Source: Botryllus schlosseri (lineage: Eukaryota). From it: a stretch of DNA of 64,000 bases. Of this stretch, positions 3,546-45,211 are shown piece after piece. The notes beneath the pieces were generated by a model. That model was not told the origin of the DNA. It did not search any database and saw only the letters and a list, made by a program, of their open reading frames with translations. The stretch covers positions 34,288,001 through 34,352,000 of the forward strand of contig CM119372.1 of assembly GCA_051294905.1 (NCBI GenBank), given 5' to 3'. The position numbers were made by a program, and so were the translations under genes. Every line of letters begins with the position of its first letter. Position 1 is the stretch's first letter.

Positions 3546-5483
3546 GAGTCTGTAAATAGAGGTGTTCGAAAAAAAAATCTTTACTATTTTCTTTAGAGTT
3601 TACATGAAGTCCCATGCATTTTCATATATATATATTTATGAGTAAACTGGTTCAAAGGGAAGGTGTGCTTACCCAATGGGATGCTGCAACCAACAAGATA
3701 ACTCAGCACGATGACTGCCACCTGACAAAATGCGGCTCTCTGCTTCTTCTGCCTTTCCGTTGTTATTGCGAGACCTGCCAATTTTTACGCAATTAGTTAT
3801 AGTAGGTCTATATTACACTGTTACGTTTCTTAAAAGGTAATTTACAATACATAATAAAATCGCAGTATTTACAGAGGGAGCATGGAACTACCCAATTACT
3901 ATGTCTACGATAAATGAGATATTCGGGAATAGAATAGCTCAACGTGAAAGTAACATATGAGCAATTGAGCATTAATGGGACTATAGGAGTAGTGTTATGG
4001 GAATCGTTTGTTACCGTCCAATCACAGAAGGCCACGTCGCCTTAATTGCCACGCCTACATTGCCACATCATCCCCCATTGCCGCACCTATATGACGCCCA
4101 TTGCTACATCGTGTGTATTTATGAGCAAATTTCATTGTTTTGTGAATTTCAATACCGATTTTCCATGTGTATTTAGCAATATGTATTGAATAACTTGAAA
4201 TGTATCATCACTAATTAATTAATATGAAAAGCGATTTTGAGCGCTGCGACTTGAATATATTAATCCCTACGCTTCTGATGAATGATTTTATGTGATAAGG
4301 ACCTTGGTAACATTCAGATTCTGCAACGATTGTTTGGATATACATTTTAGCAATACCCCACTAAATTATAAGCGGTTATATTACTCTATTGGTCGGAGAT
4401 AACTCATCCGTCAATATTTTTAAACTTGATTTTATGAGTACAAGTTTCGGTTTCTGCGGTCTCCACATTTACGACTTATTTTGATTAGACGCAGGTTAGC
4501 GATTCTCAAGTTCGGAGCTATGGAAACAAATCAGTCGCATGTGCACGTTCCGAACTCGCAACAGCTTACTGAGCTTAGTAGCATATACGCGAATCCCAAG
4601 GCGAAAATAATCGAACGAACTATAGCCGCAGGCGCGCGAAGGGCTGTAATTATACAAACACTTTATCCGCATATACGCGAACCCTAGCGTTATAACGACA
4701 GGAAATAATTAGCGCGTTCTGAAGCCGTAAATTTAGTCAACTTCAATCAGATAGCCATGATTTAAAGATGGTAATATCTCCTAATGACTTTAATACTCTG
4801 AATTTTAAATTATCCACACCTATGAGTTAATACTTCTTTACTTAACAACTCCAAAGGTTAGCACAGTTTGTGGTATTTCGATTACCTGCTAATAAAATGT
4901 TGAAATGTAATGTACTTTTTTTCAGGGGTCTCGATGAATTGTACCAGTTTCATCTATTTCCTACAATGCATTTCGCTGTCCTGAATGACTTATCATCACC
5001 GTGAAAAAATAGTAAAAATATACCGAAAATTTGGGAAGTCCTACTATGCGATATTTGAGTTTTTCAATTTACATTTCGAAATTAGCCCAGTTGGATATCA
5101 ACGAAAACCACGTAAAATTTCACTCCAAACGTTATGGCTTTAACTCGAGCAAATACGTATTCCGAATTTTATGAGTGAAATAACCTTCCTTATGTCAAAT
5201 CTACATAGGGCAGAATAAATCGAAAAAACAATAAATGCGGAAGCCTAGGCATCGAGATATAGCTCGGCGTCACACCGCGGTCCAATAACGAGAGTGGAAT
5301 AATATAGAAATCATACCGAACCATTGTAAAAGTGACGTTTCTTAGTTTATGCATATAAAATTTCACATTGTAAAAGTTAATATTCAAGGTCCATTTTAGT
5401 TTAATACTGAAACTGTCTTGAATTTGAAACAGGCCTATATCATAAACACTTGAGTAGTTGGTGCATGTAGGCAAAAAAAACCA

Positions 5484-7218
5484 CTTGAGTACTTTGAAGA
5501 AATACATGTACTTCTCTGCTCAACATCTCTGAACGATAGAAGTGGAGAAATAGTCTACAAACATAACCAGTTACTCACTTACTTACTTACTTTGAAATCT
5601 GTACTTTTACTTGTATTCGAGCGGAATTGCGCGATGTTGAGTACCATCTGACGGCGTTTATCACACTGCTGGAAAATTAAGGTTCAGTACTCGAGTATCA
5701 AATTAGATTTACTTGAGTGAACGTGAGGAGTTATAATAAGTGATTCTACTAAAGTTTCCATGTGGCGCGGTGAGGGCCGCAGGATGGAGAAAAGATACTT
5801 TAGGAAAAATGGATACGATCGGTGGTACTAACGCCTCGGCTAACAAAGGATATTTCAAACACTTTTAGTAGTACTTAACAGTTTCAGTTTTAAATAAAAT
5901 TCGGAATATAAACTAATCGAAAAATTCGGTAACCAATTTCGCGTAGGCTATGCATACAAATGAGGAACGTTACATCAACGCGTGTTAACTAGTTGTATTA
6001 TGAAGCTTGTAATTCATGCAAGTAAGTCGGACAAATTCGTCGCATGAACACGACTCTAATGGACATAACGAAATGAAAATTTTGTAAAGTAGATATTTTT
6101 CGGTATGCTAAATTCGGCTACGCGGTGCTAGTCTTCTTGGCCGCATGAAATAGGATGTTTTAGCTTCAACCTCAACGCATAAGCACATCGAATTTAAATA
6201 TAGGCGATGAATAATATACAGTAGCTCCAATTTTAATGAAAAAATAAAAATAAAAATAAAAAAGCGCGAAAACTGCATTTATCCTGGAACGCACCAAGAA
6301 AAACCGTATGAATTTGTAAAGTAGTTAGAAAACTACACTATTCCGCTACACTAAAGACTTTGGCACTCCGGATTTTGTATAGTGTTTACTAATTTTACAT
6401 TGCGGAGTATTCAGTAAAGTTTAATCCAGTGATTCTCCATCTATTTTCAAACACGATCATCTTATTTGTCTAGGCTTCGAACCCCACACCCAGTACGTTT
6501 TATGGGGATTAATATTTTACTCAGCTATACCTTCCAATTCGGTTCCCGACACGATAACTTTCCTCCGTATGATCATTAAGGCTTCTATTTTTGTTGCAGG
6601 ATGGCTTTGTAGGATTCTTTAAATATCGCTTTCGACTACAATAACGTTTGGAAGGGACTCGTGTTTGTTGGAATCGGACTGACATCTATAGCAATGGCAT
6701 TATCAAGATAATGGATGTTCGCATGTTTTATCTCATGTAATATTTTAAGAATAAAATTCTTCATCGTTTAATCGCATCCATTTTACTGTAGGATGTATAC
6801 AGTTTCAGTATGAATGATGGGTCCTATGGTGCTTGACGAAAGAAGTTGGTCATCTATTCTATATTCCGAAATAATCAAGTTGGCGATTTTTTATCAGCAC
6901 CTAGCCTCATAGAAACTTTAGTCGAATCACTTATAACTCCTAAGTTTAGTCAAGTAAATCTAATTTGATACTCGATCACTGAACCTTAATTTTCCAGCAG
7001 TATGATAGACACCCTCAGATGGTACTCAACATCGTGCAATTCTGCTCGAATACAAGTACAAATAGAGATTTCAAAGTAAGTAAGTAAGTAACTGGTTATG
7101 TTTGTAGACTATAACTCGACTTCTATCGTTCAGAAAGGAAAGGACGTAGTTTATTTTTGTCCTTGATGTTTGAGATGTTGAGCAGAGAAGTACATGTACT
7201 TCTTTAAAGTACTCAAGT
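5484..7218. repeat. Internal ~290-bp inverted repeat pair (5484-5772 / ~6897-7218) within the arm; mirrored in the right arm
   Basis: For example 'ctgctggaaaattaaggttcagt' (~5666) versus 'actgaaccttaattttccagcag' (~6978). AGTACTCAAGT motifs resemble Tol2-type hAT subterminal repeats. Confidence 0.8.
6600..6711 (+). pseudogene. Captured terminal exon resembling Bcl-2/Mcl-1 family (end of BH2 plus C-terminal TM anchor), frameshifted; mirror copy 14398-14509 (-)
   Basis: Acceptor ttttgttgcag|GAT GGC TTT GTA GGA TTC TTT = DGFVGFF. Then in the +1 frame: NIAFDYNNVWKGLVFVGIGLTSIAMALSR*. AATAAA at ~6750. Confidence 0.55.
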
Positions 7219-8360
7219 TGGCTAAAATGCCAAGCTACCATGTAACTAAGGCTACTATTTGTCATAATAACTACTATGAGCGCACAATTAGCTTGTTCAA
7301 AATCTCCAAATTCCAGGGATTCACTGATTGAATTGATATATATTGAATTAAAATAATGCTGCATACGAAATTTGGTAGATGTGAACGCATTTTTATCAAA
7401 ATGTTCAAATTTCACTGACATCCTCTTGAAATTGTTACAGTGTCTAAAACAGAGATCTCAAACACGCGGCTCGCGAACCGCCAATTTAATAAACCGTCGA
7501 ACAATCAGGGTAGGAGACAAGATTTTTCCGTTCTATATCATGACAATACCAACAAACACCGTGCAAAGTTTCAAGGTTGTCATTCGATGATTAAGGAATT
7601 AAGAAAACTACTTCTACTAAACTTCTGGACTTTTATTAAACCTAAACACTGCATCTGATCAAGTATAGATAGAAAAGCAAAGCTAATATAAAATTTCACG
7701 AAGTCCCGATTCTGTAACTACTGTGAGTAGGCAAACGTTAGCTGAGTATACTCCGAAAAAACAGGAGTAATTCGTTACTCACCAAATAAATGGATAACAT
7801 TCAATATGAGCGGCGTTAGGATATCCGTCAAATACTTTCCGTTATTCTATAGAAGTTGCGTTTCTGACTACTTAAAAGTTGCTAGAGCTCATGCTGTTTT
7901 ATCGTCGTATTGATGTTCGTTTTGAAAAGTAGCATGCTCAATGGTTCATGTTCACATTATTCAGGTAAATTAGGTTTTGCGCAAAGAAAAATAAAATTCA
8001 CGCAAAAGTCGCTATTGCTCCGTCATGATTTTGATGTTGTTCCATACCGATTTGGGAGGTAGTTCACTTAATTTTGTGAAGTACGCAGAAAACTACTTCT
8101 ACTAAATTCCTACACTTCTAAACTTCTACACTGAATCTTGTAAAGTATATAGAAAAGGAACACTAACGAATAATTCATGAAGTTCCGATAGGCTATAGTT
8201 GAGGTAATGATTCCCGTGCGAATGAAAAGTAAGTAGAGAAGCTTAGTATATCAACGATATCGTTGCCAGTCATTGTGTCGATTCGCTGCTTGAAATCCTC
8301 CAGATCGATTGATGTTTCGAGGTTTCGTGGTTTCGCTTTGCTGTCATCCGTACGAGCAGA

Positions 8361-8612
8361 ATGTCTGGATTAGGAACAGCTACGCCAGGACCATTGATGC
8401 TTTCGATACAGTGCAATATGAATAGCGCTACGTTGATCAATTCAAATTCAACAATGGCTCCCGCGCACGATTATGTAGCCGGATTTTCGTTGAATATTGA
8501 CGACACCCACAAACCGAAAGATCTCTTTCCCCTTCACATCTATGATAGAGTTATCACTCCAATGACTACGAATAACTTGAGATTCCGTCGGATTAATATC
8601 CGAATCAAATAA
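8361..8612 (+). CDS. 83-aa ORF, possible remnant of a Polinton minor capsid (penton) C-terminus; mirror copy 12497-12748 (-)
   Basis: IQCN...IN...F.LN...PK.L..L....I..M...N.RF..INIRI loosely follows recalled Polinton penton C-terminal spacing. By eye only. Confidence 0.25.
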   Translation: MSGLGTATPGPLMLSIQCNMNSATLINSNSTMAPAHDYVAGFSLNIDDTHKPKDLFPLHIYDRVITPMTTNNLRFRRINIRIK

Positions 8613-9099
8613 TACCAGAGTATCTTTTCCAGCTTTTAAAACCCGCACTGTCGCGTTCAGCCTATGTCGCAACACCACAATATATGGCCATACAAAACGA
8701 TGAATAGTTGCTTTTTGTAGTACCATATCTGCGAGATATTTTCAGTTGGGTGTAATTTCACGCTGCTCACCAATTTACAGCTCACAGTGCAACTGAATTT
8801 GCGTCCATTCTAATTCTACATAATTTTTGCATGTCAGGCAATTACATCATCAGTAAAATGCCGGCGGCGACTCATTTAAAGCTTGTTAGTATCTGAGATA
8901 ATTGGCGCTCAAGCGTAGCATGGAATCGCTAATGATGTTTGTCGTATAATGTAAACTGTATATCATTATAAGAAAGATCAATGGGACTACGTCCCGAGTA
9001 AAAAAAAGACATTCACGAAGTTCCGATACACTATATCCTAATTTTTAAAAATTATTCCTCCTCTTGAGTCGAGACGTAGTTAAGTAAATAATTTTTATG

Positions 9100-9223
9100 T
9101 ATTAATCATTACCTATCTTCCGTAAACCAACAAAATACAACTAAGATCCTATTCCATTATTCCCGCACCACACTATGTAGGCGACCAGCCTGATTTGAAC
9201 ACTCTAATTTTTCCAAAGTAAAC
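9100..9223 (-). rRNA. Degenerate 18S rRNA fragment (left-arm copy)
   Basis: Reverse complement of 11886-12009. Confidence 0.8.
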
Positions 9224-9371
9224 ACTTAAGAAAATTTTATGTGGTTTTTAGATAATGTCCAAGATGTAGGCTCACTTTAAAGGGTAAATCGTAAAACTCA
9301 GATATTGCGCAGTGCGAGTTCGCAAATTCTTGAAGTATTTTTGTTATTTTTATTGCGATAAGTCATTCTGC

Positions 9372-10670
9372 AGTGCGAAAATGCGTCGTAGGATATAGAT
9401 GAAACTACCAACACTCATCAAGACCGCTGAAAACAGTACATTTCAACATTTAGTAGCAGTAAATTTCTAATAAAGTACAAGAAGTGATGATTTCCGAGTG
9501 AGTTAAAAAGTAAGTATTGCAGGTATAGTTTACCTGAAAACCGAATACTCTGAAATAGAAGTAGATGCAGTGTAAATAGTTAATCACTTGATTAAGTATA
9601 GTGCAAGCAGATAAAACCTATACTTGAGTACTACAAAATGCACGAGTACTTCGCTATCGACTCACTCCACGTAATAAGTGACTACGGTTTAAGACTTCTT
9701 TTACCGATACTCGTCAGTTTCAGTTTTAGATAGCATTCGGAAACCAAATAATTTCATAAACATAAGCTACTTAAATGAATTTACTCGAATGTACTATGCC
9801 GCGCTGATAAGATTAATTATAATATACTTATCATGTTACAGCGATTTTTCTAGCGTAGAAAATCTTTAAAATGTAGTAAGCAGGCCAATATGAAGATATT
9901 CGTTGAGCTTAATAAACATAAAAAATACTCTAGACTACTTTATCGGTACTTTACAGTTTCAGTTTTAGATACAATTTGTCCCTTTCACCTATAATTACAA
10001 CTCCTCGCTATCTAAACATGTTTAGAATATATTATTTGCGATGATACGAACCCGTAAAGTACTCAAGTAGCTTTTCGTAGGATATAGATGAAACTGACAC
10101 CGCTCACGAAGACCACTGGTCCACTGAAAAAAGTACATTGTAGCAGTAAAGTCCTACTAAAGTACAAGAAGTAATGATTTCCGAGTGAGGTAAAAAGTAA
10201 GTATTGAAGGTATAGTTTGGTCAAAACCTAAAAACTCTGAAATAGAAGTAGATGCAGTGTAAATAGTTAATCACTTCATTAAGTATAGCGCAAGCAGGCC
10301 AAACCTATACTTGAGTACTTCAAAATGTACAAGTACTTCGCTATGTTCTCCCTGCTCGTAAAAAGTGACTAGGTTTTAGAGTACTTTATCGGTACTTGAC
10401 AGTTTCAGTTTTAGATAAAATTTGGTAAGACTTTAAATTTTTTAAAGTAGTTTGAGCTTACGTTTGTATCACCTTGACAAGTAACATTATCAGACATGAA
10501 AATGATACTATCACCTAATACAGAAGTTAACACACGTCCATGTGCTTCTTAATTCACGAGAAATTGCTTACTAAGAGAAATGTATTCTTGTATAAACAAT
10601 AGTGGAGAGAATATTTAAAATGTAGTAAGCAGGCCGATGGGTATTCTTTGAGTTGTATAAGCATAAAAAA
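9372..10670. repeat. Diverged tandem duplication (~690-bp period) running from the left arm into the spacer
   Basis: 'ctctgaaatagaagtagatgcagtgtaaatagttaatcactt' occurs at ~9548 and ~10235; 'aaaatgtagtaagcaggcc' at ~9868 and ~10617. Confidence 0.85.
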
Positions 10671-10749
10671 CATTCCCGCGCGCGTGTCTTAGTATTAGGT
10701 GGTATAGGGTTAGGATGAATTAGGTTAAGGAGCGCGCGGGAATGTTTTT
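10666..10749. other. Perfect 18-bp hairpin with telomere-like loop at the palindrome turning point
   Basis: AAAAACATTCCCGCGCGC (10666-10683) pairs with GCGCGCGGGAATGTTTTT (10732-10749). Loop: gtgtcTTAGTaTTAGGtggtaTAGGGTTAGGatgaaTTAGGTTAAGGa. Confidence 0.9.
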
Positions 10750-11885
10750 ACGAGGAGGGAGAACATAGCGAAGTACTTGTACATTTTGAAGTACTCAAGT
10801 ATAGGTTTGGCCTGCTTGCGCTATACTTAATGAAGTGATTAACTGTTTACACTGCATCTACTTCTATTTCAGAGTTTTTAGGTTTTGACCAAACTATACC
10901 TTCAATACTTACTTTTTAACTCACTCGGAAATCATTACTTCTTGTACTTTAGTAGGACTTTACTGCTACAATGTACTTTTTTCAGTGGACCAGTGGTCTT
11001 GGTGAGCGGTGTCAGTTTCATCTATATCCTACGAAAAGCTACTTGAGTACTTTACGGGTTCGTATCATCGCAAATAATATATTCTAAACATGTTTAGATA
11101 GCGAGGAGTTGTAATTATAGGTGAAAGGGACAAATTGTATCTAAAACTGAAACTGTAAAGTACCGCTAAAGCAGTCTAGAGTATTTTTTATGTTTATTAA
11201 GCTCAACGAATATCTTCATATTGGCCTGCTTACTACATTTTAAAGATTTTCTACGCTAGAAAAATCGCTGTAACATGATAAGTATATTATAATTAATCTT
11301 ATCAGCGCGGCATAGTACATTCGAGTAAATTCATTTAAGTAGCTTATGTTTATGAAATTATTTGGTTTCCGAATGCTATCTAAAACTGAAACTGACGAGT
11401 ATCGGTAAAAGAAGTCTTAAACCGTAGTCACTTATTACGTGGAGTGAGTCGATAGCGAAGTACTCGTGCATTTTGTAGTACTCAAGTATAGGTTTTAGCT
11501 GCTTGCACTATACTTAATCAAGTGATTAACTATTTACACTGCATCTACTTCTATTTCAGAGTATTCGGTTTTCAGGTAAACTATACCTGCAATACTTACT
11601 TTTTAACTCACTCGGAAATCATCACTTCTTGTACTTTATTAGAAATTTACTGCTACTAAATGTTGAAATGTACTGATTTCAGCGGTCTTGATGAGTGTTG
11701 GTAGTTTCATCTATATCCTACGACGCATTTTCGCACTGCAGAATGACTTATCGCAATAAAAATAACAAAAATACTTCGAGAATTTGCGAACTCGCACTGC
11801 GCAATATCTGAGTTTTACGATTTACCCTTTAAAGTGAGCCTACATCTTGGACATTATCTAAAAACCACATAAAATTTTCTTAAGT

Positions 11886-12009
11886 GTTTACTTTGGAAAA
11901 ATTAGAGTGTTCAAATCAGGCTGGTCGCCTACATAGTGTGGTGCGGGAATAATGGAATAGGATCTTAGTTGTATTTTGTTGGTTTACGGAAGATAGGTAA
12001 TGATTAATA
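11886..12009 (+). rRNA. Degenerate 18S rRNA fragment (3' part of the V4 region)
   Basis: GTTTACTTTGGAAAAATTAGAGTGTTCAAATCAGGC...GGAATAATGGAATAGGA...TATTTTGTTGGTTT.CGGAA...GGTAATGATTAATA matches conserved eukaryotic 18S motifs in the right order. Confidence 0.8.
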
Positions 12010-15000
12010 CATAAAAATTATTTACTGAACTACGTCTCGACTCAAGAGGAGGAATAATTTTTAAAAATTAGGATATAGTGTATCGGAACGTCGTGAATGT
12101 CTTTTTTTTACTCGGGACGTAGTCCCATTGATCTTTATTATAATGATATACAGTTTACATTATACGACAAACATCATTAGCGATTCCATGCTACGCTTGA
12201 GCACAAATTATCTCAGATACTAACAAGCTTTAAATGAGTCGCCGCCGGCATTTTACTGATGATGTAATTGCCTGACATGCAAAAATTATGTAGAATTAGA
12301 ATGGACGCAAATTCAGTTGCACTGTGAGCTGTAAATTGGTGAGCAGCGTGAAATTACACCCAACTGAAAATATCTCGCAGATATGGTACTACAAAAAGCA
12401 ACTATTCATCGTTTTGTATGGCCACATATTGTGGTGTTGCGACATAGGCTGAACGCGACAGTGCGGGTTTTAAAAGCTGGAAAAGATACTCTGGTATTAT
12501 TTGATTCGGATATTAATTCGACGGAATCTCAAGTTATTCGTAGTCATTGGAGTGATAACTCTATCATAGATGTGAAGGGGAAAGAGATCTTTCGGTTTGT
12601 GGGTGTCGTCAATATTCAACGAAAATCCGGCTACATAATCGTGCGCGGGAGCCATTGTTGAATTTGAATTGATCAACGTAGCGCTATTCATATTGCACTG
12701 TATCGAAAGCATCAATGGTCCTGGCGTAGCTGTTCCTAATCCAGACATTCTGCTCGTACGGATGACAGCAAAGCGAAACCACGAAACCTCGAAACATCAA
12801 TCGATCTGGAGGATTTCAAGCAGCGAATCGACACAATGACTGGCAACGATATCGTTGATATACTAAGCTTCTCTACTTACTTTTCATTCGCACGGGAATC
12901 ATTACCTCAAATATAGCCTATCGGAACTTCATGAATTATTCGTTAGTGTTCCTTTTCTATATACTTTACAAGATTCAGTGTAGAAGTTTAGAAGTGTAGG
13001 AATTTAGTAGAAGTAGTTTTCTGCGTACTTCACAAAATTAAGTGAACTACCTCCCAAATCGGTATGGAACAACATCAAAATCATGACGGAGCAATAGCGA
13101 CTTTTGCGTGAATTTTATTTTTCTTTGCGCAAAACCTAATTTACCTGAATAATGTGAACATGAACCATTGAGCATGCTACTTTTCAAAACGAACATCAAT
13201 ACGACGATAAAACAGCATGAGCTCTAGCAACTTTTAAGTAGTCAGAAACGCAACTTCTATAGAATAACGGAAAGTATTTGACGGATATCCTAACGCCGCT
13301 CATATTGAATGTTATCCATTTATTTGGTGAGTAACGAATTACTCCTGTTTTTTCGGAGTATACTCAGCTAACGTTTGCCTACTCACAGTAGTTACAGAAT
13401 CGGGACTTCGTGAAATTTTATATTAGCTTTGCTTTTCTATCTATACTTGATCAGATGCAGTGTTTAGGTTTAATAAAAGTCCAGAAGTTTAGTAGAAGTA
13501 GTTTTCTTAATTCCTTAATCATCGAATGACAACCTTGAAACTTTGCACGGTGTTTGTTGGTATTGTCATGATATAGAACGGAAAAATCTTGTCTCCTACC
13601 CTGATTGTTCGACGGTTTATTAAATTGGCGGTTCGCGAGCCGCGTGTTTGAGATCTCTGTTTTAGACACTGTAACAATTTCAAGAGGTTGTCAGTGAAAT
13701 TTGAACATTTTGATAAAAATGCGTTCACATCTACCAAATTTCGTATGCAGCATTATTTTAATTCAATATATATCAATTCAATCAGTGAATCCCTGGAATT
13801 TGGAGATTTTGAACAAGCTAATTGTGCGCTCATAGTAGTTATTATGACAAATAGTAGCCTTAGTTACATGGTAGCTTGGCATTTTAGCCAACTTGAGTAC
13901 TTTAAAGAAGTACATGTACTTCTCTGCTCAACATCTCAAACATCAAGGACAAAAATAAACTACGTCCTTCCCTTTCTGAACGATAGAAGTCGAGTTATAG
14001 TCTACAAACATAACCAGTTACTTACTTACTTACTTTGAAATCTCTATTTGTACTTGTATTCGAGCAGAATTGCACGATGTTGAGTACCATCTGAGGGTGT
14101 CTATCATACTGCTGGAAAATTAAGGTTCAGTGCTCGAGTATCAAATTAGATTTACTTGACTAAACTTAGGAGTTATAAGTGATTCGACTAAAGTTTCTAT
14201 GAGGCTAGGTGCTGATAAAAAATCGCCAACTTGATTATTTCGGAATATAGAATAGATGACCAACTTCTTTCGTCGAGCACCATAGGACCCATCATTCATA
14301 CTGAAACTGTAAACATCCTACAGTAAAATGGATGCGATTAAACGATGAAGAATTTTATTCTTAAAATATTACATGAGATAAAACATGCGAACATCCATTA
14401 TCTTGATAATGCCATTGCTATAGATGTCAGTCCGATTCCAACAAACACGAGTCCCTTCCAAACGTTATTGTAGTCGAAAGCGATATTTAAAGAATCCTAC
14501 AAAGCCATCCTGCAACAAAAATAGAAGCCTTAATGATCATACGGAGGAAAGTTATCGTGTCGGGAACCGAATTGGAAGGTATAGCTGAGTAAAATATTAA
14601 TCCCCATAAAACGTACTGGGTGTGGGGTTCGAAGCCTAGACAAATAAGATGATCGTGTTTGAAAATAGATGGAGAATCACTGGATTAAACTTTACTGAAT
14701 ACTCCGCAATGTAAAATTAGTAAACACTATACAAAATCCGGAGTGCCAAAGTCTTTAGTGTAGCGGAATAGTGTAGTTTTCTAACTACTTTACAAATTCA
14801 TACGGTTTTTCTTGGTGCGTTCCAGGATAAATGCAGTTTTCGCGCTTTTTTATTTTTATTTTTATTTTTTCATTAAAATTGGAGCTACTGTATATTATTC
14901 ATCGCCTATATTTAAATTCGATGTGCTAATGCGTTGAGGTTGAAGCTAAAACATCCTATTTCATGCGGCCAAGAAGACTAGCACCGCGTAGCCGAATTTA

Positions 15001-18000
15001 GCATACCGAAAAATATCTACTTTACAAAATTTTCATTTCGTTATGTCCATTAGAGTCGTGTTCATGCGACGAATTTGTCCGACTTACTTGCATGAATTAC
15101 AAGCTTCATAATACAACTAGTTAACACGCGTTGATGTAACGTTCCTCATTTGTATGCATAGCCTACGCGAAATTGGTTACCGAATTTTTCGATTAGTTTA
15201 TATTCCGAATTTTATTTAAAACTGAAACTGTTAAGTACTACTAAAAGTGTTTGAAATATCCTTTGTTAGCCGAGGCGTTAGTACCACCGATCGTATCCAT
15301 TTTTCCTAAAGTATCTTTTCTCCATCCTGCGGCCCTCACCGCGCCACATGGAAACTTTAGTAGAATCACTTATTATAACTCCTCACGTTCACTCAAGTAA
15401 ATCTAATTTGATACTCGAGTACTGAACCTTAATTTTCCAGCAGTGTGATAAACGCCGTCAGATGGTACTCAACATCGCGCAATTCCGCTCGAATACAAGT
15501 AAAAGTACAGATTTCAAAGTAAGTAAGTAAGTGAGTAACTGGTTATGTTTGTAGACTATTTCTCCACTTCTATCGTTCAGAGATGTTGAGCAGAGAAGTA
15601 CATGTATTTCTTCAAAGTACTCAAGTGGTTTTTTTTGCCTACATGCACCAACTACTCAAGTGTTTATGATATAGGCCTGTTTCAAATTCAAGACAGTTTC
15701 AGTATTAAACAAAAATGGACCTTGAATATTAACTTTTACAATGTGAAATTTTATATGCATAAACTAAGAAACGTCACTTTTACAATGGTTCGGTATGATT
15801 TCTATATTATTCCACTCTCGTTATTGGACCGCGGTGTGACGCCGAGCTATATCTCGATGCCTAGGCTTCCGCATTTATTGTTTTTTCGATTTATTCTGCC
15901 CTATGTAGATTTGACATAAGGAAGGTTATTTCACTCATAAAATTCGGAATACGTATTTGCTCGAGTTAAAGCCATAACGTTTGGAGTGAAATTTTACGTG
16001 GTTTTCGTTGATATCCAACTGGGCTAATTTCGAAATGTAAATTGAAAAACTCAAATATCGCATAGTAGGACTTCCCAAATTTTCGGTATATTTTTACTAT
16101 TTCTTCACGGTGATGATAAGTCATTCAGGACAGCGAAATGCATTGTAGGAAATAGATGAAACTGGTACAATTCATCGAGACCCCTGAAAAAAAGTACATT
16201 ACATTTCAACATTTTATTAGCAGGTAATCGAAATACCACAAACTGTGCTAACCTTTGGAGTTGTTAAGTAAAGAAGTATTAACTCATAGGTGTGGATAAT
16301 TTAAAATACAGAGTATTAAAGTCATTAAGAGATATTACCATCTTTAAATCATGGCTATCTGATTGAAGTTGACTAAATTTACGGCTTCAGAACGCGCTAA
16401 TTAGTCCCTGTCGTTATAACGCTAGGGTTCGCGTATATGCGGATAAAGTGTTTGTATAATTACAGCCCTTCGCGCGCCTGCGGCTATAGTTCGTTCGATT
16501 ATTTTCGCCTTGGGATTCGCGTATATGCTACTAAGCTCAGTAAGCTGTTGCGAGTTCGGAACGTGCACATGCGACTGATTTGTTTCCATAGCTCCGAACT
16601 TGAGAATCGCTAACCTGCGTCTAATCAAAATAAGTCGTAAATGTGGAGACCGCAGAAACCGAAACTTGTACTCATAAAATCAAGTTTAAAAATATTGACG
16701 GATGAGTTATCTCCGACCAATAGAGTAATATAACCGCTTATAATTTAGTGGGGTATTGCTAAAATGTATATCCAAACAATCGTTGCAGAATCTGAATGTT
16801 ACCAAGGTCCTTATCACATAAAATCATTCATCAGAAGCGTAGGGATTAATATATTCAAGTCGCAGCGCTCAAAATCGCTTTTCATATTAATTAATTAGTG
16901 ATGATACATTTCAAGTTATTCAATACATATTGCTAAATACACATGGAAAATCGGTATTGAAATTCACAAAACAATGAAATTTGCTCATAAATACACACGA
17001 TGTAGCAATGGGCGTCATATAGGTGCGGCAATGGGGGATGATGTGGCAATGTAGGCGTGGCAATTAAGGCGACGTGGCCTTCTGCGATTGGACGGTAACA
17101 AACGATTCCCATAACACTACTTATAGGCTACTAAACAGACCTTGTACTTGATTCATCCTCCGTATATTATAACAAATGATGACTGAGCATACAACGATTC
17201 CCACAGTCGGTAAATGTATAAGAACAGGTGCCGTATACTTCATGTGGATCCTCTTCACTTCTTCCCTAAACACACCCGGAATTGTTTCAGATTGGCCTAC
17301 ACCACGTATAGTCAAGAAAATTCCTACCTATACGCAAATATGACGCAGTTCTAGCGATGTGATTAGGGAGCAAAGGCGCAAATTCCCCCAATATAGTCTC
17401 GATCTGGGCGTTATGACGACAATATTGTTTGCTATCTAACATTGCATTCGTGACGTCACGTAAATATTTCAAGAGTTTGGACCTAGCAATACATCTATAG
17501 TATAGGCCTGTGCCACATCCTGTGTCACATCCTGTGTCACATCCTATCACATCCTGTCATTGCCTCGATAGCAACCCACCAGCCACTATATCCATTCGAG
17601 CATATCCGAGTATTTCCACTTTCGTCAGTTTCAATCCCTGAGGTAAGCATGCGAACGACACCAATCGAAAGAATGCACTCAATCCAGAGCATCCAGGTCA
17701 GAAGCTAAATGATTACGAATAAGATCACGGTTCGTTACTGAACGAATACATAATGACATTAATAATAAATTCTTACTTGTGCTTTGTTCGGTGTAAATTT
17801 CGCTATGGTTTTGGGAAATTTGAATGCAGCCAGTCTGAAGATGCAGCAGCATAAAATATGGTGACATGTGCACATTTCGGTCACTGCAGCAAGGGTGTGA
17901 GTCAGCTGTGGAAATTTTATCACTATAGTTATCGTTGTACGGTATGGTTAATCAATGGAGAGTAGGAGTGTTCAAAAATATTTGTTTCTACAAATTTCAC

Positions 18001-32696: not shown

Positions 32697-35600
32697 AAGG
32701 AACGCACATAGCAAATCAATAAGTGTAAAATATATTTCATGTCCTTTGTCTACTTTTCCAGATTAGGGCACGTCATTACGATTAAGGTTGGAAAAATCGA
32801 GTGTCTGAGTGATTCGTTTCCGAATCGGGTATTATGATTCGAGTCGAATACTCGAGTATCACAGGGTATGACACCATAACAACGTGAAAGATGTGGAAAG
32901 ATCAAATATGTACCTTTTATGACTGGTATCGCAGTTATTGCCGGTTATCGTAGGCCCAGTCTTATCCTTTTCATGAAGTCCATAGATGTTCCAATACCAT
33001 TATCGCAGTATTGCACTCATTATATTTCCTGACTCGAAGCAAACTCGATTCATGCGAGCCCAGCACATCACGTCACCTTCAATATAGTATTTTTCTTCCA
33101 GATCTGCATTCAACCTAGTGTTGCATCTGAAACAAAATCAATTTAAAACAAACACGTTTAAAACAAGGGCCTTGTTTAAAACATGTTTTTTCTTTCTTTT
33201 TTTTCCACTTTTTTAGCCATGACGTCACGACTATTTAATAGTGACGTCACGGTGAATTAGCATTGACAATTAAAAATGCAGGGTAAATATGACTCCTTCG
33301 ACAAAAAGGGCTTCCGATCACTGTCATAAACAGATCAAAAATATATTTAACCAGGACTACATCGTTATGCAGCATTTTTACATTCGGCGGTCATCATCAT
33401 CAGAACACCCATTTCGTACCAATGATCTATATATACCTGCAAAAACTGTTGAACCGACAACAATTTCGAGGATTCCAGCCACCCCGCATCGTATACGTCG
33501 ACTATTATGGGTGCAAATCGTCCGTAGGCTTATACTACATGATTTTTCGGACGTATTTACGCAATTATGGCATAATTAGACAACGTTTAAAAAATGAAAA
33601 CAATTTTTGTTTCCAAAAAGGCATTTATTTAAAACACTGCTTAAACAAAGTGTTTTAAAACGCCGTTTGCTTTAAACCTTTTAAAATCTGATTCCGTATA
33701 CGGAATCGGTCAACTTCATCTGGCCCTATCTTTATTTATCTACGTCCTATAGGCTTCGTTTTTGTTTGTAGGGAAAGCTAACAATCTTCTGATTTATATG
33801 ATACCTAATTCGAAAGCATGAGGCATGACAATTTTCGAGCACCGACGATCTTACATAAGGAGCTCGGCCGAAAATACGCATGCAGAAAAAGTGGTTATCA
33901 CCAAAAATTTCCAGATATTTTCCGAGTGGGAAATCTAGTCAGGCATTCTGCCAGAACATCAGAAGTCGACTTGTACAGTGTTCTGTGTAATTTTTCACCG
34001 TTTCAAACATCAAAACTTGTTCTTAGTAGTATTCTGAAGGGGTTTGGTAATTTTGGTCACGCTTCGGTGATTTTCTAGAACATAGTTAAGTTCGTGACCG
34101 AATATGAGTCATAAACTGGTTTATTATGCCTGCAAATGGCTGGATACGACATGAGAAAGTATACCACGTTGTTTCATGCCATTAAGTGGGAGGTAGGGGT
34201 CCGATTCGGTATTGATCTTGAAGTTGACCATAGTGACCACTTACTGACCACGCCCATATGTAAATTTTTCATGTATTTTTGATTTTTTCGATAACTGGCG
34301 AGCGGCATGGTTTACGGCCATGGTTGCATGGTCACAACGAACTTTGAAAAGTGGCCCGCGACCCGTTTAGAGTTGGCGACCCCTGATCTAGCGTGATTCA
34401 GTTTTATCTCAATAATATCACTTATAATCAGGGTTGCCATACCGTCCTTATTTCTAAGATTTGTCCTTATTTTGAAGGCAAGGTCTTAGAAAATTCAACT
34501 GTCCTTTTTTCTAAGAAATGTCCTTGTTTTCGACGTGCGTCCTTATTTTGTCTTATTTTCAACAACGACAGAACTGCGATCGTTTTCCTCTGGTATCTGT
34601 GTTGCATAAAATTATGCTTTTGCGTCGAGATTTTATGACATCATAAATGAACGGAACTCTCGTGGCGTACACATAAGATGATTTGACTTCCAAGTGGTGA
34701 GATAGCTAGAGCAGTGAGTGGTATGACATTTTCAGCAGTAGCCTACCATCGCTATCGCAGCGTACGTCATTTTAGCAGAAACAGCAGCATAGGCGCCGAG
34801 TTGCGAGGTTACGTTCGCCACCTTGTCACTATATTTACAAGGTGGCGGCCACCTGTATAAAATGCTCAAACGCCCCCAGTAATTTGTAACTAGTAAAAAG
34901 TAATTAGGCGAATCCACGCGACCTCGTCAGAGACGTCGTTGATATAATCAGAAAACAGTTGTCGCGAGGCGAGAGTGGTATAGTAGATCGCTCGTGATTC
35001 GTACTTTTTTTGCATGGGCTCTTATGGGTGCGGTGGTGACTCGTATTGAAAACTCGTGTTGAACCGGTGACCCTTTTGACCCCCCTCCTTTCGCTCAACC
35101 GGTGCCTGGGCTGGTATAGGGCATCTCTCGCACGGTAACCCTTTTCGGTATAGGGATCGCTCAACCGGTGCCGCGTACTTTCAGACTGTCGTATCGTTCA
35201 ACCGGTGTCATTGCTTCCTATGGGCGCGCTCGTAACCTGTCTGTCATGTATTCTGACGGGATCTCTGGTGATTCACCGTGTGTTCTTATGGGTGTGGTCG
35301 TGAATCGTACTTTCGGGTACAGGCATCTGTCGAGGGGTGTTGAATATGTATCAGGTATATTGATCACGTGATTGGTCCTTAGTTAATGTGTATATCCCAA
35401 ATTATTATATATGACCGATTCGAGTTAATCCCAACGTTTGCGGTGATTGCGACTTCAATATATCGTTATTCTTATGGGTGCGGCGACACGGTAACGTAGC
35501 TGATATAGACGTGGTGACATGATAACGTTACAGGTATAGGGATCGCTCACACGGTTCTACATGAAGACGTCGTAGTTCAGTCGTGACAAATGACCCACCG

Positions 35601-36632
35601 CATTCTCTATTCCAGAGGTCTCAAACACGCGGCCCGCATGCGGCCCCCGACACTATTATGTGCGGCCCGCGACGGCATTTCGCATTTCGAAGTATTCGAA
35701 AATATTGAATTACCAATTTTTTTTAATCCTTGAACCTAAAAATCGGTCTAAAACTACTACAGAAGCCTGAAACTACTCATCAAACTTCACTAATACACCA
35801 ATTTCAAAAGTTACTACGCAGGGGAAGTTCAACTATTACGTGACATTACTTGTTTATGATGGTAAAACATGACCCGTTAATGATTCGTGACTGAAAATTG
35901 TGATTTGGAGTTGAGCGCGACCTTTTGTAGAATTACCCGAGCTCGGACTCGTCGCGTCAAACGTTACAATCGGATGGACTTGTGTCTCGGAATGCCGTGA
36001 CTTGGTACAACCACGGACGCAGCAAACTATGAAACTGGTATGAGAAATAGTAAAATATGAAAATGTCGTAGCTTGCGTTGCGTATCTTATTTATATATCT
36101 AAGCAGGTCGGTATGGCAACCGACATTGGCATTATGTTGCCCCTTTGCTGTATAGTTGGTTACATCCAGTGTCATCTTTGGGTATCTTTATATATGTTAT
36201 TATTGCCAATTAAATGCGGCGAGTATTAACTAATAGTCGTAGCCTACGCTCCCCAGCTGTAACACCAATGGATTCTTCGGCGATTGCACATTTCTATTGC
36301 TATGGAACAGCTTTTATTATGTTCAAGTTGTTATTTATCTGTTCCAATATTCGAAGGTAAATCTAACGCTGAATCTATTTTACTTTGGTAATGACATGAT
36401 TAATATAGCCTAGTTATCAGGAGTAGGCCTATGCCCAAAACCCGGATTAGGCTGTACTGTTCCAACGCTCTGATATCAGATCAATCTCTGTAAAATTAAT
36501 AAATTCTACCTATAATTGTGAAACATCAAATGTCCACTAGCTGCAAAATGATCACGCGACAGCCTTTACGGCGTCATGATGCATTTGAACTTTCGCATGG
36601 TGTCTACAACTAATTATTTTGACAAACTATGC

Positions 36633-37927
36633 CAGGGGTCGCCAACTCAAAATGGGTCGCGGGCCACTTTTCAAAATTCCTAGAGGCCGCGGGCCGCATG
36701 ACATCAATATCGAGATTAAAGTAGGCAACGCAGTTTAACAACCACGTCTGATAACTCTGCGTTATTACAATGCTGTGCTCTCTAACATGGGCGACGGGCA
36801 TATAGTCACCACAGAAGAAATCATATTTTATTGAACAAACACAAATCCAACAAAAAATATCAAGATCATCAATTTCAATATATTTTGAACTATGAGCTGT
36901 GCACGATACCTGACAACACTCTGCATAGCGCAGATAAAACAGGGGTGGCCCACCTATTTCCTTTTCACGGCCGCATTTCAATTACTCATATAGCCTGCGG
37001 GCGCATTCCGGTGCATAGTCATGGTGAACTAACTGGGGCCAAACGGCAAATACCCACGTTAGACTGTCCATGTCCATCGCCGGTACACTCCGGACTAATA
37101 TATTTACGCATATCGACTTACTGTGCGCACCGAAATCGTCATAATAAAAAGAGTCACACGGATTCGAGCTGTAGCCGCGCGACGCGCAAAAAATTTTGCA
37201 GGCTCATGAGTGAATTTCGTCAATAAATATTAGTATAGTTTCATATATCACTATAAAACATTTATCCTTTTTCGGCCAATGTGGTCAGATTCACCGGTAG
37301 AGCTGATGCAGGGGTTGTCTTCGAAAACTTAGGGAAGTGCTGTGCTGCATTTTTGGTTGGGTCAATTCTTATTAGTCCCCTTTGTTGCATGCAGTTATTT
37401 CTTGACCTCCCATCAGATTTGTCGAGAGTCAATTCGTAAATACAGTTTGCATATTGACGGACGCCAACACATCCTAATTGAATTAAGTGTCGACAGCCGC
37501 ATAATTTTCCTTCTACTGTCGCAGATTGGCCACCCCTGGATTAAAAAATCGATATTGGGGTTAGCTGGACACGGTAGTCTACTTGCTGGAAAACTATCTC
37601 TTCGTAAAGCATGGTCTTTTGGAGAGCCCGAACTCGTTTTTCACGGGTCTAGGTCTCGGCAGTCGTGGACCATTGCACGTCAAGGCAATATTCCCATTCA
37701 TACCAGCTAATTCTTCATCCATGGAATGATATTATCATGCCGAAGACGTATATCAGCTAGTGAGGAATAGTGATATTGGGCACAGTAGAATGGCTTAGTT
37801 TGAATAACAACAACAATATCAATTTCAGCATTTCAAAATGCTTCACTAAGCGTTCTTCCGAAATTTTTCCAAATCAGGTGGCGGGCCGCAAAATATGACC
37901 TCGCGGGCCGCGTGTTGGTGACCCCTG
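36633..37927. mobile_element. hAT-Charlie-like element nested in 35613-38173
   Basis: TIR CAGGGGTCGCCAAC/GTTGGTGACCCCTG; perfect TSD AACTATGC. Confidence 0.9.
36940..37538. mobile_element. hAT-Charlie-like MITE nested in 36633-37927
   Basis: TIR CAGGGGTGGCC/GGCCACCCCTG; flanks AGATAAAA/GATTAAAA (imperfect). Confidence 0.65.
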
Positions 37928-39795
37928 AACTATGCCAAGTGCAGCAACAATTTTATTCAAATATCTAAAAATGTGATTTTTTTTCGTGCCAGGCGTGAAT
38001 TCCAATAGTATATCATATTTTCACGATGCTTGTGGAATGTCAGTCTGCAAGGTCCCATCAAATAAGGCCTACTTGGAAATTCATTTAATTCCCATATTAT
38101 TGGTGCTGCGGCCCGCGGAGCCATCAAAAAGTAGGAAATTGGCCCGCGAACACATTTGAGTTTGAGACCTCTGCTCTATTCTAACTCAAGTCTCTTCATA
38201 CTGTGTGTTGATTCCTACGCAACCTGACTAGCACGCCGAGTTTCAGTTCGGATTATTCGCACTTTCCATACCGCTGTTTCGCACCTACAAAATAGTCTGC
38301 TGTTCACAGTCGCAGCATTAAGTCGCGATTTACCACAGAGCCGGCGTAGACGGCGATTCGAATACCAACAATAGCCGCGTTCACATACTAACACTTCAAA
38401 AAGGTGTGAAATATATAACAAACCCCGCGATCGCTGACATGATAATGTCTCGGACATAGCCATCTTTCGTGACTTGGTGTTACAGACATGTCGATCGCTC
38501 ACGCGGTGAAATTTTAGTAATCAGTTTGTCGCAGAACTTGATTTCGCTGGTAAGATTTAATAACGAAGAACAGAACCGTCGCAGACGGTGATTCGAATAC
38601 AGACAAATTCTGCTCTAACCCTAATCCTTTGCGAAGTTAACTCTTCAAAAATATGTGAAATAATTTTAAAATCCTACGACCGCTCACAGGGTAATGCTTC
38701 AGACATAGCGATCCCTCATGATTTGGTGTTACAGACATACCGATCACTCACAAGGTAATATTTCGGGAATTAGTTTGTCACACGGCAAACGTCGTAGAAA
38801 TTGTTTATGTGACGACAACGACTTTGAGTGACTTAGTTTCGATCCTTTCTGTAAAAGATTGTCGGACAATGGTGTTATACTCTTCCGTAATGGTTGAGGT
38901 CGTCATCAAGTTTCCAATCAACTATTAATCGGCCGTGCGACTTTGGTTTAACAAATCGTAATATTTCTAAAATGCTTGCTGGTATCATAAGACACAAATC
39001 GAAATTCACATCAATCAAGACCTTTGCATGCTCTGAGTTTTGTGATGGCATTTATTTCACCCGATATAAATGAACCTGTATCAATAGTAACGCGAAATGC
39101 ATTTATCATTTTCGGTGTTGGTTGTGACCCTGATTTCATTACCGGTATATACTCTAGAAATAATTTCTGCATACTGAGTTAGGATGCGTTTAACGAATAT
39201 CATGCAAGTTGTTTTTGTGGTGGTAATGACTTTCAGTAGTTTGGTTTTTATGATTACAATTACTTTAGAAGATTCAAATGATAATGTATGATCACTGCTA
39301 TGAACAACAATACAAGCACATTTTGTGGATTTCAGTGTAGCAAATATTTTGATTTTATTAATGCTGTGAGTTTTGTCTAGTAGAATAGGTTGCAGCCAGT
39401 AAAGATATTCCAAATTGCTCTTGTGCTGATCCAAGTCTTAGGGTGGAGGCCAAAAATATAGATCAAATAAAAGATCTGGGGATTTTGCACGTTGCTGGAT
39501 TTTCTGCGGACCAGAAAGGTAGATTAGTAAGATTCTGCCAGGACCGACTGAGTATAGACTGCTGCTTCTTGATCCTGGTCGCCACCAGGATTAAAGTCTA
39601 GATTAAGGTACACAAGCATATAAATTTGGCGAGGTTTGTAATAGTTATGACATTGTAGATTGAAATTGCTTATCTGAGGCTCATTATAAAGATAGTGAAT
39701 ATTGCATGTTAGCGATATTTTGTTACCGGTACTCAATTGTGCTTCTCCTTATTGACTGATGATCATGTTATTACAGAATGTTTAATGATAATTGC

Positions 39796-41686
39796 CAGTG
39801 GCGGCTCGTCCTATAGGGCAACTGGGGCATTGCCCCACCTAAAATTCTGTTCAATAACAATTCTTTACCATTTATAGACGCACACCTATCTATATAAACC
39901 GAAATCACAGCGAAAATCGTATACTTCTTGTCCTTTCGCTTGTAAATGCCCATATATAGCGAAGTCTATGCGAAAATCAAATTCTCTTCTGTGTTTTCGC
40001 TTTGCGAATGCCTAGCCGGGGCTTGCCCCGGTAGCGCTCATAACAAGCTTTCACTGTCTATTCTCTCAAAACCGCGCATAATAAAGAAACGGTGATTTAC
40101 TCTCTCCTATTCATAAAATTACCGAGCAACCGGGGCACGATAGCTCTGTGCCCTTAAGGTGTGATGTAACAATCGTATCTATAGCTGAACTCTGTTACCG
40201 TCATATGCGTTTAGTCGACCTTTGTTGGTATAGGTCGATTTTAATGGGGTTTCACACCATGAAAACTCTTGAAACTTGTTATGTCATGTCGTGATGGTGG
40301 GATTTAACACTGCCCCAAGTTTCAGGGTTTCTGCTTAAAGTTTAGGGTAGTAATTCCGTTTCCGAAGTTGAGTGTGTGCTGATCCGTCATGTATCGCAAA
40401 CAGATTTTACTCAAAAGCCGGTATTGGTATCCATTGGTTTTGACGGTGTTCAATACTGAGATCGGTTATGACATTTGGCACGGTAAGTCTTAATGTTAGT
40501 ATCGAACGCTGTACCAAGTTTTAAGTTTGTCACTGAACTGTGTTAGTGGTAATTTCGTTTCCTAATTCGAGTGAGAGCTGACTCGTCATTTATCGCTAAC
40601 AGATTATACGCAAAGCCGGTATTGGTCTCTATTGATTTTAACGATGCTCCTTACCTAGATCCGTCATAAGCTTTTGCACGGTATGTCTTGATTTTAGTAT
40701 CGAACGCTGTGCCAAGTCTCAAGGTTGACACTCAATGATTAGGGCAGTAATTTCGTTATCAAGGTCGAGTATGGTAAAGATGTGCTCCGATCTGACACTT
40801 TAGCCTACAACACATTGCGGATTTCACGCAAAAGCCGGTGTATCTGCGGTAACGTTAAGTGAGATGATGATATCATTCTCAGTTTGCATTCAAATATTTA
40901 CTTTGATCGTATATTCTCCAATGTCAATTTCCCCGTGAAATTGTGGCCTTCAAGCCATTTGCGTACAACCCCTCGTCACTTGATCAGCCTATTCCTCAGT
41001 AAATTTTACGCAAAATTCGGTGTTGGTCTGTTCGCATTAATTTTGACAGTGTACCATACCGAAAAGGGCCATGAGGCCACTTCTCGATAATGTCATGTAA
41101 CAGTGTACCAAGTTTAAGGCTTTCATCCACGTATTTATTCGGTAATATATTTTTCAAAGGCGATTTCGCACCAGACCTATAAGACAGTAATAAAAACGTA
41201 TGTGTCGTGTTACAGTCTCCAGTTTCAAGGCCAAAATCTCTTATGCTGTACCGAGACCAAATTTCCGAGGCTGCTATTCTTAGTCCTTTACAATGATGTT
41301 TTGGATTCAATAGGACAGGCCCAATCTATGAGATAACAATTGCGTATCTGTCCGAATTCGTTGACCTTTCCAATTAGGCTTACGCTATCTCTCGAGTTAT
41401 AGTCATTTCCATTTCTGCAGATAATTAGTCAGGTCTAATGCGAACATGAACCGTGTTGAATCTTTGTTCCGTACGCCGTTTACGCAGTTACCACACTTCA
41501 AGTCACAGCTCACCAGCGGACCTCTCGTGGCACATACGTTAAAATCACTGTTGCCGGGAAATTCATGTTACCGTACCATCATTAAGTTACTTGTTTACGT
41601 TGGAAAACGCCATTGTGACGTCATCTTGATAAAAAGTCGCTTGCACCCCTTGCCCCACCACCCGATATTGTCACGAGCCGCCACTG
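39796..41686 (+). mobile_element. Non-autonomous hAT (CAGTGGCGGCTCGT TIR), copy 1, inside the Harbinger
   Basis: Perfect TSD ATAATTGC; internal ~180-bp degenerate tandem units. Confidence 0.9.
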
Positions 41687-44177: not shown

Positions 44178-45211
44178 TTAGTAGAAATATGTGTTGATCT
44201 TATTTTCAAGATAGGCTATTGCGTCATTGTATCCAACTTCAGATGTTATATCCGTAGCTTCCTCGGGAGTAACTGCAATATCAGGAACTGGCTCATTGGT
44301 TTTTGTAGCAAAATTGTGCAAACATATTGTTGCAATGATTGCCAGGATGGTGTTTTCGATTTGCATTCACATAGGATTTAGCAACATCTGGAAACGCTGT
44401 TTGAGAACGCCAAAGCATTGCTCGATCAGCACGCGTGTCTTTGAGTGCATATAGCTGTATTTTTTTTCTTGTGCAGCCTGTGGATTTGTTAATGGAGTCA
44501 TCAGGTACATTTTTAGAGCATAGAGCCTCTGTCTCCCAGCAAAATCCCATTGTATTTTTTCTGGCCGAGCTTGTATTTTAATCTGGAATTTGAAAAAGTT
44601 CTTGAGTCATGAGTACTCCCTGGCCATCTCACAACAGCATTAGTCACTACCGGTATTCTCTTGGCATTGCAGTCCATTTGACAGTTCGAAGAAAAATATC
44701 CTTTCCTGCAACGATAAGCTTTTCTGGTACAGAGTCACCTGGGGACTTTATCGGAATATGGGTAATATCAATGCAACCGATGACATTTGGAACTCCACCT
44801 ATGTCAAAGATATCACTCTTTGTTTGTAACAAATCATCCAATCGTTGGATAAATTTTCTCTATTCTCTGATAATGCCCGAGAAATGCAGTGGATGATTCG
44901 GCGTGCAGTTGTCCGTCTGCCACCAATCAAGTCAGCATCTGTTTGTTGAAAATTACCGTACCAAAAAATCGGAGAGCACAGAGTAATTGCATCATGGGGT
45001 GCAAAGCTTGGCACCGTACATCCAACCATGGGCTGTCTTTAATCATGTCCAATAGAATTACCGTAGCTCCCTTGTAATTTCTGTAGCGGTCAACGAATTC
45101 ATTTTCTGGGTATTTTACAAATGAGTCCGATATGTTTGCCAAGTAATGCCTGGGCATGACAATTGTATTCTAGTCGTCCGAACTGCCATCTACGATATCC
45201 AAAATATCCAT
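44178..45211 (-). pseudogene. Harbinger/HARBI1-like DDE transposase pseudogene
   Basis: Fragments LLCALRFFGT, VIGCIDITHIPIKSP, LMTPLTNP, HSKTRVLIEQCFGVLKQRF and ATICLHNFA, broken by frameshifts and stops. Confidence 0.9.

Follow-up and report, generated by a model that had tools for sequence, protein, structure and literature searches.

A gene-less palindromic element with Maverick-type ends and the probable one-sided deletion at its centre

The 64-kb window (the whole stretch of Botryllus schlosseri DNA that was analysed, 64,000 nucleotides) contains a long palindrome whose two arms are separated by an asymmetric spacer with a short GC-containing hairpin at one side, and the question that this locus raises is whether the hairpin and its adjoining junction record the event that founded the palindrome. 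An earlier note, made from the letters alone, had proposed that a 3' end carrying the hairpin folded back and was primed on a TAAAAA microhomology, thereby generating the second arm. Our analyses indicate that the hairpin is most likely the true centre of the palindrome and that the odd junction beside it is probably a deletion scar and not the founding event. The reading we favor, to which we give a probability of about 0.62, is that the arms of the family reach a 48-nt loop and have the hairpin stem as their innermost 18 bp, that the right arm of this copy is short by 306 bp and was joined at a 5-bp T run, and that the family is Maverick-derived and helper-dependent. It builds on features that were established directly, namely the geometry, the ends, the target-site duplication, the lack of recognisable genes, the high abundance, and rare letters common to both arms. 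The coordinates are collected in Table 1.

Table 1. Features of the palindromic element and its centre (positions in the 64-kb window)
Feature	Position	Strand	Evidence
Target-site duplication TATAGG, left copy	3982..3987	+	Sequence match
End motif (AGT)2, left	3988..3993	+	Commonest vertebrate Maverick end motif according to PMC8097293
Left arm, 6,377 bp that are mirrored in the right arm; non-coding; contains older direct and inverted repeats	3988..10364	+	Arm comparison
Internal repeat unit, first copy; the second copy (10075-10675) crosses the apparent arm end into the "spacer"	9386..9930	+	83% and 78% identity
TAAAAA, probable microhomology at the outer breakpoint; holds the A5 run closest to the A6 run of the apex	10359..10364	+	Axis geometry
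306-bp arm segment whose mirror is apparently absent from the right arm of this copy	10365..10670	+	Axis offset, depth, loose ends at 10683
Left stem half, interpreted as the inner terminus of the left arm, common to many copies	10666..10683	+	Pairing; summed depth at 10682
Apex loop, 48 nt, unpaired, G/T-rich, degenerate telomere-like, differing between copies	10684..10731	+	Pairing, alignment, depth
TAGGGTTAG nonamer within the loop, identical to the human POT1 minimal site, candidate only	10705..10713	+	Also at 38615 and 47588
Right stem half, interpreted as what is left of the right arm's inner end (18 bp); the distal arm shares its T run	10732..10749	+	Pairing, axes
Right arm, mirror of 3988-10364	10745..17121	-	Arm comparison
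End motif (ACT)2, right	17116..17121	+	Sequence
Target-site duplication TATAGG, right copy	17122..17127	+	Sequence match

The palindrome spans 13,134 bp (3988-17121), and its arms are 99.5% identical, differing by 30 substitutions and no indel (0.47% divergence). It opens with AGTAGT and closes with ACTACT, and the TATAGG on either side constitutes a 6-bp target-site duplication; the chance of this hexamer at a fixed site is 3e-4. Because of these ends and the flanking TATAGG, the palindrome can be said to have inserted as one unit, rather than having arisen by fold-back duplication of the chromosome. None of the 55 stop-free stretches of at least 40 aa in the left half of the element had a Pfam match above the cut-off, with a single weak zinc-finger match below it, and the longest stop-free stretch in the element is 128 aa. 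Genes for polymerase B, integrase, ATPase, protease and capsid were absent from the element by this Pfam search of the 55 stretches, as was any resolvase-family match. One 99-aa stretch (8313-8609) was considered as a gene and rejected, since its atlas scores did not exceed 0.81, its recognition was low and it had no relative in viral contigs. Neither the Pfam search of the stop-free stretches nor the comparison of the 99-aa stretch with viral contigs revealed a Maverick gene or remnant that would tie the element to a helper, and its terminal 19-mer and an internal 20-mer had no matches in viral contigs. Each arm also contains inverted repeats of its own (5483-5772/6898-7218, 78-88% identical, and 4829-5120/9232-9518, 70%), which points to previous rounds of fold-back or to foldback elements nested in one another; a target-site duplication was looked for at the 5483-5772/6898-7218 pair and not found. 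An 11-mer that matches the element terminus occurs at 17193-17203, 70 bp beyond the right end, and is the sole such 11-mer elsewhere in the window; it is due to chance or is a trace of an older end.

The ends of the element point to the group of mobile elements that it most resembles. In vertebrate Mavericks the end motifs are (AGT)2//(ACT)2 or (AG)3//(CT)3, and a 6-bp duplication with (AGT)2//(ACT)2 ends is the commonest pattern, as described in PMC8097293. The palindrome has precisely this combination, and its 13,134 bp fall within the 12.7-24.6 kb reported for intact vertebrate elements (PMC8097293, PMC6431247). It is unlike those elements in that the polymerase, integrase, ATPase, protease and capsid genes are missing and in that its inverted repeats, at 6.4-6.7 kb, make up nearly all of it, compared to the 46-1,447 bp given for vertebrates in PMC8097293. 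Of the hallmarks of an autonomous Maverick, then, the duplication, the end motifs and the terminal inverted repeats are present and the gene set is lacking. On these sequence features, the element is likely to be a non-autonomous Maverick derivative. Non-autonomous Polintons with very long inverted repeats were reportedly noted by Kapitonov and Jurka in 2006. No description of a palindromic non-autonomous Maverick family was found in the literature searched, whose reach excluded most subscription journals.

Alternatively, the element could belong to another superfamily, as a foldback transposon that moves by cut and paste; the likeness of its ends to those of Mavericks would then be superficial, and gene conversion following insertion would keep the arms alike. 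The absence of Maverick genes and the likeness of the internal arm repeats to foldback elements are compatible with such an origin, and nematodes are reported to maintain long inverted repeats actively, arm to arm (PMC1803023). However, the 6-bp duplication together with (AGT)2/(ACT)2 ends is the Maverick pattern, integrase-related Ginger elements carry 4-bp duplications and TGT ends, and 30 unrepaired differences and a one-sided 306-bp gap persist between the arms. We therefore regard a foldback transposon as distinctly unlikely.

At the centre of the palindrome, 10666-10683 pairs perfectly with 10732-10749, giving an 18-bp stem around a 48-nt loop. The folding energy of this hairpin is -21.5 kcal/mol (z -6.2, equalled by none of 200 shuffles), and the opposite strand folds at z -6.9. 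No longer perfect stem with a loop of at most 100 nt occurs in the 64-kb window, where the runner-up has 14 bp, and 2,000 Markov resamples of 10359-10750 yielded no stem of at least 15 bp. The perfect stem described in the earlier note was thus confirmed by pairing, folding energy, shuffles and resamples. Equally borne out was its observation that the TTTTT at 10745-10749 is both the end of the stem and the start of the right arm, and is complementary to the AAAAA at 10360-10364. No match to Rfam was obtained over 3900-17200 at E values up to 1.

The relationship of this hairpin to the arms is the key to the junction. The symmetry axis of the stem and that of the arms are offset by exactly 306 bp (21415-21109 = 306), and a stretch of exactly this length, 10365-10670, lies between the A5 run at 10360-10364 and the next A run inward, an A6 at 10665-10670. 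The arm contains a repeat unit, 9386-9743 of which is 83% identical to 10075-10428 and 9851-9930 of which is 78% identical to 10600-10675. The second copy of this unit begins at 10075 and crosses 10364 unbroken to about 10675, which shows that 10365-10670 is not foreign to the arm; only 10676-10744 is without a counterpart in the arm.

Evidence on other copies was obtained from public sequencing runs, of which four of 24 were used, with contigs aligned to 9300-10800 at 85% likeness. Runs X1 and X15 are from organism A and represent different samples and studies, X1 possibly being the source sample, X5 is from organism B, and the fourth, X21, is a run of raw Hi-C reads from organism E that contributed a single read. 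On these 1.5 kb there were 13,642 records in X1 and 583 in X15, indicating that the family is very abundant in organism A; the intact target-site duplication and the 0.47% arm divergence point to a recent insertion. Contig depths are noisy sums and not copy numbers (the arm bins of X1 ranged from 38,000 to 123,000), and may be inflated by paralogous modules. With that reservation, the summed depth at 10682, in the left stem, was 23,519 in X1 and 40,008 in X15, and at 10716, in the loop, only 624 and 1,243, respectively, at 85% likeness. Since the depth stays high through the left stem and falls in the loop, the stem is common to the copies and the loop is variable. We had considered the stem as a private templated scar of this copy, and dropped this idea because contig depth places the stem in many copies.

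Two further properties of the contigs point to copies whose arms are symmetric up to the loop. Among the best 18 of 411 loose ends, 13 X1 and four X15 contigs end their likeness directly behind 10683, and their consensus agrees with the reverse complement of the last 19 nt of the loop at 14 of 19 positions, and at 11 of the first 12, this 12-mer match to the loop end being unique in the window. The contigs probably have the left-type context there, since they were placed on the left stem and not on the right, assuming the placement rule to be as we understand it. A copy that is symmetric up to the loop would give such loose ends, although, taken alone, a flipped loop would do so equally, in which case 10365-10670 would be single-copy in each element. 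The mean depth of 10371-10676 relative to the arm mean bears on that difference: it was 0.94 in X1 and 1.29 in X15, compared to the 0.5 expected if halved. In X5 the same ratio was 0.48, with depth near zero from 10524 on. Among the same best 18 of 411, no loose end was found at 10364 or 10745, and this speaks against a longer unique loop that would begin at these positions. No full second copy, and no record spanning the whole centre, occurred in the contigs examined (public runs, viral and metagenome), and we infer the symmetric apex of other copies from contig ends and depth instead.

These results bear directly on the possibility that the centre of this copy is the original one. According to that explanation, the 380-nt spacer would be family-wide, a 3' end having folded at the stem, slipped onto TAAAAA and made the second arm, with the 48-nt loop flipping between the 18-bp stems to give two isomers. 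The junction geometry, considered alone, is compatible with this, a flipped loop would yield the loose ends behind 10683, and inverted duplications in yeast are reported to arise by fold-back priming at short inverted repeats (PMC10622511). There is also a match between the first 15 nt of the loop and two inverted 8-10-mers upstream (the early loop at 10687-10701 with overlapping inverted words at 10569-10576 and 10512-10521), a weak sign of template switching or templated synthesis that was reached by 57-72 of 5,000 shuffles, about 1%, and was chosen post hoc. However, the spacer depth is not halved in X1 or X15, the rough upper bound on the depth of the window-type right junction (about 15,000) is below that of the left stem (23,500 in X1, and clearly so in X15 with 40,000), and an extra mechanism would be required to invert 48 nt between 18-bp repeats. 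A founding fold-back of this kind is consequently unlikely in our estimation, and the priming of the second arm on TAAAAA is probably wrong, given that the 306 bp continue the arm repeat, that the spacer depth is unhalved and that other copies appear to be left-type at the loop end. Repeat continuity, the other copies and depth together make the microhomology better read as a breakpoint, left either by a one-sided deletion or by a slip during arm copying.

Potentially, the one-sided 306-bp gap could instead be an assembly or long-read error at the hairpin. Palindrome apexes are hard to sequence, and no independent DNA containing the window-type junction, and no independent record spanning it, appeared among the contig-table rows listed. 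Against an error are the clean join on a microhomology and the lack of any indel elsewhere in the 6,377 bp, and we consider it very unlikely. Still less tenable is the notion, also raised earlier, that the 84-bp hairpin is a tiny inserted foldback element or dispersed MITE unrelated to the palindrome. A hairpin has terminal inverted repeats by definition, but no flanking duplication was found for this one, no second copy was found in the 64-kb window, its left A run belongs to the ancestral repeat unit of the arm, and the reads place the stem in the context of the palindromic element. Exact matches to the stem 18-mer were found in two viral and 48 metagenome contigs, and all 50 are chance occurrences, with neither a hairpin nor any further likeness. 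A separate MITE is thereby largely refuted, leaving it a negligible probability, and the hairpin stands as the turning point of the palindrome, as first suggested, since in the contigs its stem sits in the palindromic element.

The loop that the stem encloses had been described as degenerate TTAGG/TTAGGG repeats. The likeness is real, in that the loop contains three TTAGG and gives the best local alignment to (TTAGGG)n of 10,659 48-nt windows taken in steps of 6, a score reached by two of 2,000 loop shuffles; it is degenerate, with no intact TTAGGG and a longest perfect telomere stretch of 10 nt, a length found twice elsewhere in the window. The alignment test is itself post hoc, because the loop had been singled out beforehand for its telomere look. 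The G-quadruplex potential, which the earlier note had suggested checking, proved to be low: the loop has no three-tier motif and one two-tier motif, and its G4Hunter maximum of 0.88 is reached by 1.4% of the 25-mers of the window. As a source for the loop, a copy of an internal arm module was tried and rejected, 197 of 300 shuffles scoring as well. The loop also includes TATAGG at 10703-10708, the same hexamer as the target-site duplication, which is probably chance.

A functional telomere-like apex would, irrespective of how the junction arose, have a loop that is derived from telomerase-added repeats or bound by a POT1-like single-strand protein, and the element would replicate as a half-length duplex closed by a hairpin at one end and protein-primed at the other. 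In its favor are the top (TTAGGG)n match, the direction of the G-rich strand, which reads toward the turn, the lack of an arm source for the loop, and the presence of TAGGGTTAG, which a reference title in PMC7229828 names as the minimal site of human POT1. On the other hand, an unrelated pair of repeats in the window holds the same nonamer, intact TTAGGG is absent, only a few percent of the stem depth has a loop within 85% of that of this copy, and the loose-end consensus, if in register, ends in a letter other than the final G of the nonamer, a weak point. The lack of a resolvase gene and the low G-quadruplex potential also weigh against such a function. We therefore consider both a telomere-like apex of this kind and, more generally, a telomere-related origin or role of the loop as doubtful on these motifs, and the telomere-like loop as an unproven lead.

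Related to this is the alternative that the hairpin is a resolution site, as in hairpin-telomere replicons. The hairpin telomeres of phage N15, Borrelia and poxviruses are near-perfect palindromic sites cut by a dedicated resolvase, and in the dimer form of such a replicon the turning point appears as an inverted repeat. The apex of the palindrome is unlike them, having a 48-nt loop that is unpaired and variable between copies, and the element encodes no resolvase, so this alternative was not upheld.

The arms themselves carry evidence of exchange. Among the best 40 of 108 variant rows, 29 lie in the arm part, and at 13 of these 29 at least 90% of the X1 depth has another letter than this copy. 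The rare letter is present in both arms at ten of the 13 positions, and in the left arm only at the other three, where the right arm agrees with the family. As a mutation arises in one arm, the ten shared rare letters must have been copied across, and the arms are copied from each other, either at mobilisation or in place. The differences between the arms are denser near the centre, 16 of the 30 lying in the inner 2 kb (8365-10364; KS p 0.03, binomial p 0.01 with a chosen bin). Such central clustering is not predicted by a simple clock, and weakens arm divergence as a clock.

The favored reading of the apex can be set out as a series of conditional steps. The element would be mobile, devoid of genes and palindromic over almost its whole length, with ends of the Maverick/Polinton type, and would probably rely on an autonomous Maverick for replication and integration, the protein-primed polymerase and integrase of the helper presumably acting on its two identical ends, as the end motifs suggest. 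Family copies would have arms of about 6.7 kb each, about 13.4 kb in total, turning at the 48-nt loop. One arm may be remade or repaired from the other, either in a single strand that has folded or where the nascent strand turns around at the apex, and homogenisation of the arms could thus occur by turn-around copying or by mismatch repair of the folded strand. In this copy, the mirror of 10365-10670 would have been lost from the right arm, during arm copying or after insertion, with the join at the 5-bp T run, where slippage or end-joining at the apex of a hairpin or cruciform would be expected to place it. The 48-nt loop would thereby have become an asymmetric spacer of 380 nt, presumably a more stable arrangement. 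We infer both the 306-bp deletion and the dependence on a Maverick helper. For the origin of the family apex, both a fold-back at the self-complementary GCGCGC (compare PMC10622511) and a decayed telomere-type addition are plausible.

A more elaborate possibility is that such elements are natural self-complementary Maverick satellites, with a half-length duplex that has one protein-primed end and one closed hairpin end, in which turn-around copying renews an arm and the loop is a decayed telomerase addition or a dock for host telomere proteins that shields the apex from hairpin-opening nucleases. Remaking of one arm in each round by apex turn-around copying would explain the rare letters common to both arms. 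We hold this only tentatively and consider it rather improbable. The Maverick life cycle itself is characterized in PMC5499653 as awaiting experiments, with replication not directly observed.

Precedents for the individual steps exist in other systems. In the snap-back genomes of AAV, a parent end is copied back to give a self-complementary, helper-dependent molecule, in symmetric and asymmetric (looped) forms (PMC8235507). AAV is nonetheless another class of virus with other enzymes, and its forms are varied by-products, whereas the palindrome belongs to a family that is integrated in the chromosome in many copies and whose apex is fixed; the comparison is an analogy and not kinship. For the probable deletion, the closest parallel is that of human palindromes (PATRRs) cloned in E. 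coli, for which PMC1851657 describes one-sided deletions with one end near the centre, joined at short direct repeats, and PMC7999016 reports that longer spacers reduce palindrome instability. Those are cloned AT-rich palindromes of 0.2-0.6 kb, whereas the mechanism proposed here concerns a 13-kb element in an animal chromosome. In the fold-back inverted duplications of yeast, too, the middle of a long inverted duplication is occupied by a short inverted repeat with a small spacer (PMC10622511), but these are chromosome rearrangements without end motifs or a target-site duplication, unlike a palindrome that moved as a unit.

The class of element is striking, and the junction is most likely an ordinary palindrome-centre deletion; the short telomere-like apex is the new part. 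A high-copy palindromic derivative with a defined short apex represents a concrete and testable intermediate, a hairpin-ended half-genome. The element also illustrates that normally unstable, near-perfect palindromes of 13 kb can persist in an animal chromosome and decay by one-sided deletions at the centre. As the apparent spacers of such elements may be deletion products, the structure of the apex needs to be judged across copies.

Other repeats were noted elsewhere in the window. An apparently recent LTR retrotransposon lies at 54492-59028; its 175-bp LTRs are 99.4% identical, TG..CA ends and a GTAAT duplication are present, and its open frame of 1,056 aa has RT, RNase H and integrase domains in Ty3/Gypsy order. 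The region 35001-52112 holds two interleaved pairs of long inverted repeats, A (35001-38782) with A' (47422-48743) and B (39796-41686) with B' (49193-52112), at 88-97% identity. Their interleaved, not nested, order may reflect an inversion between two foldback elements. Repeat B contains tandem units of about 198 bp, and its ends showed no clear duplication. A minisatellite with a 41-42-bp unit composed of TCTAAT repeats forms two arrays in the region of the B' arm, at 49953-50808.
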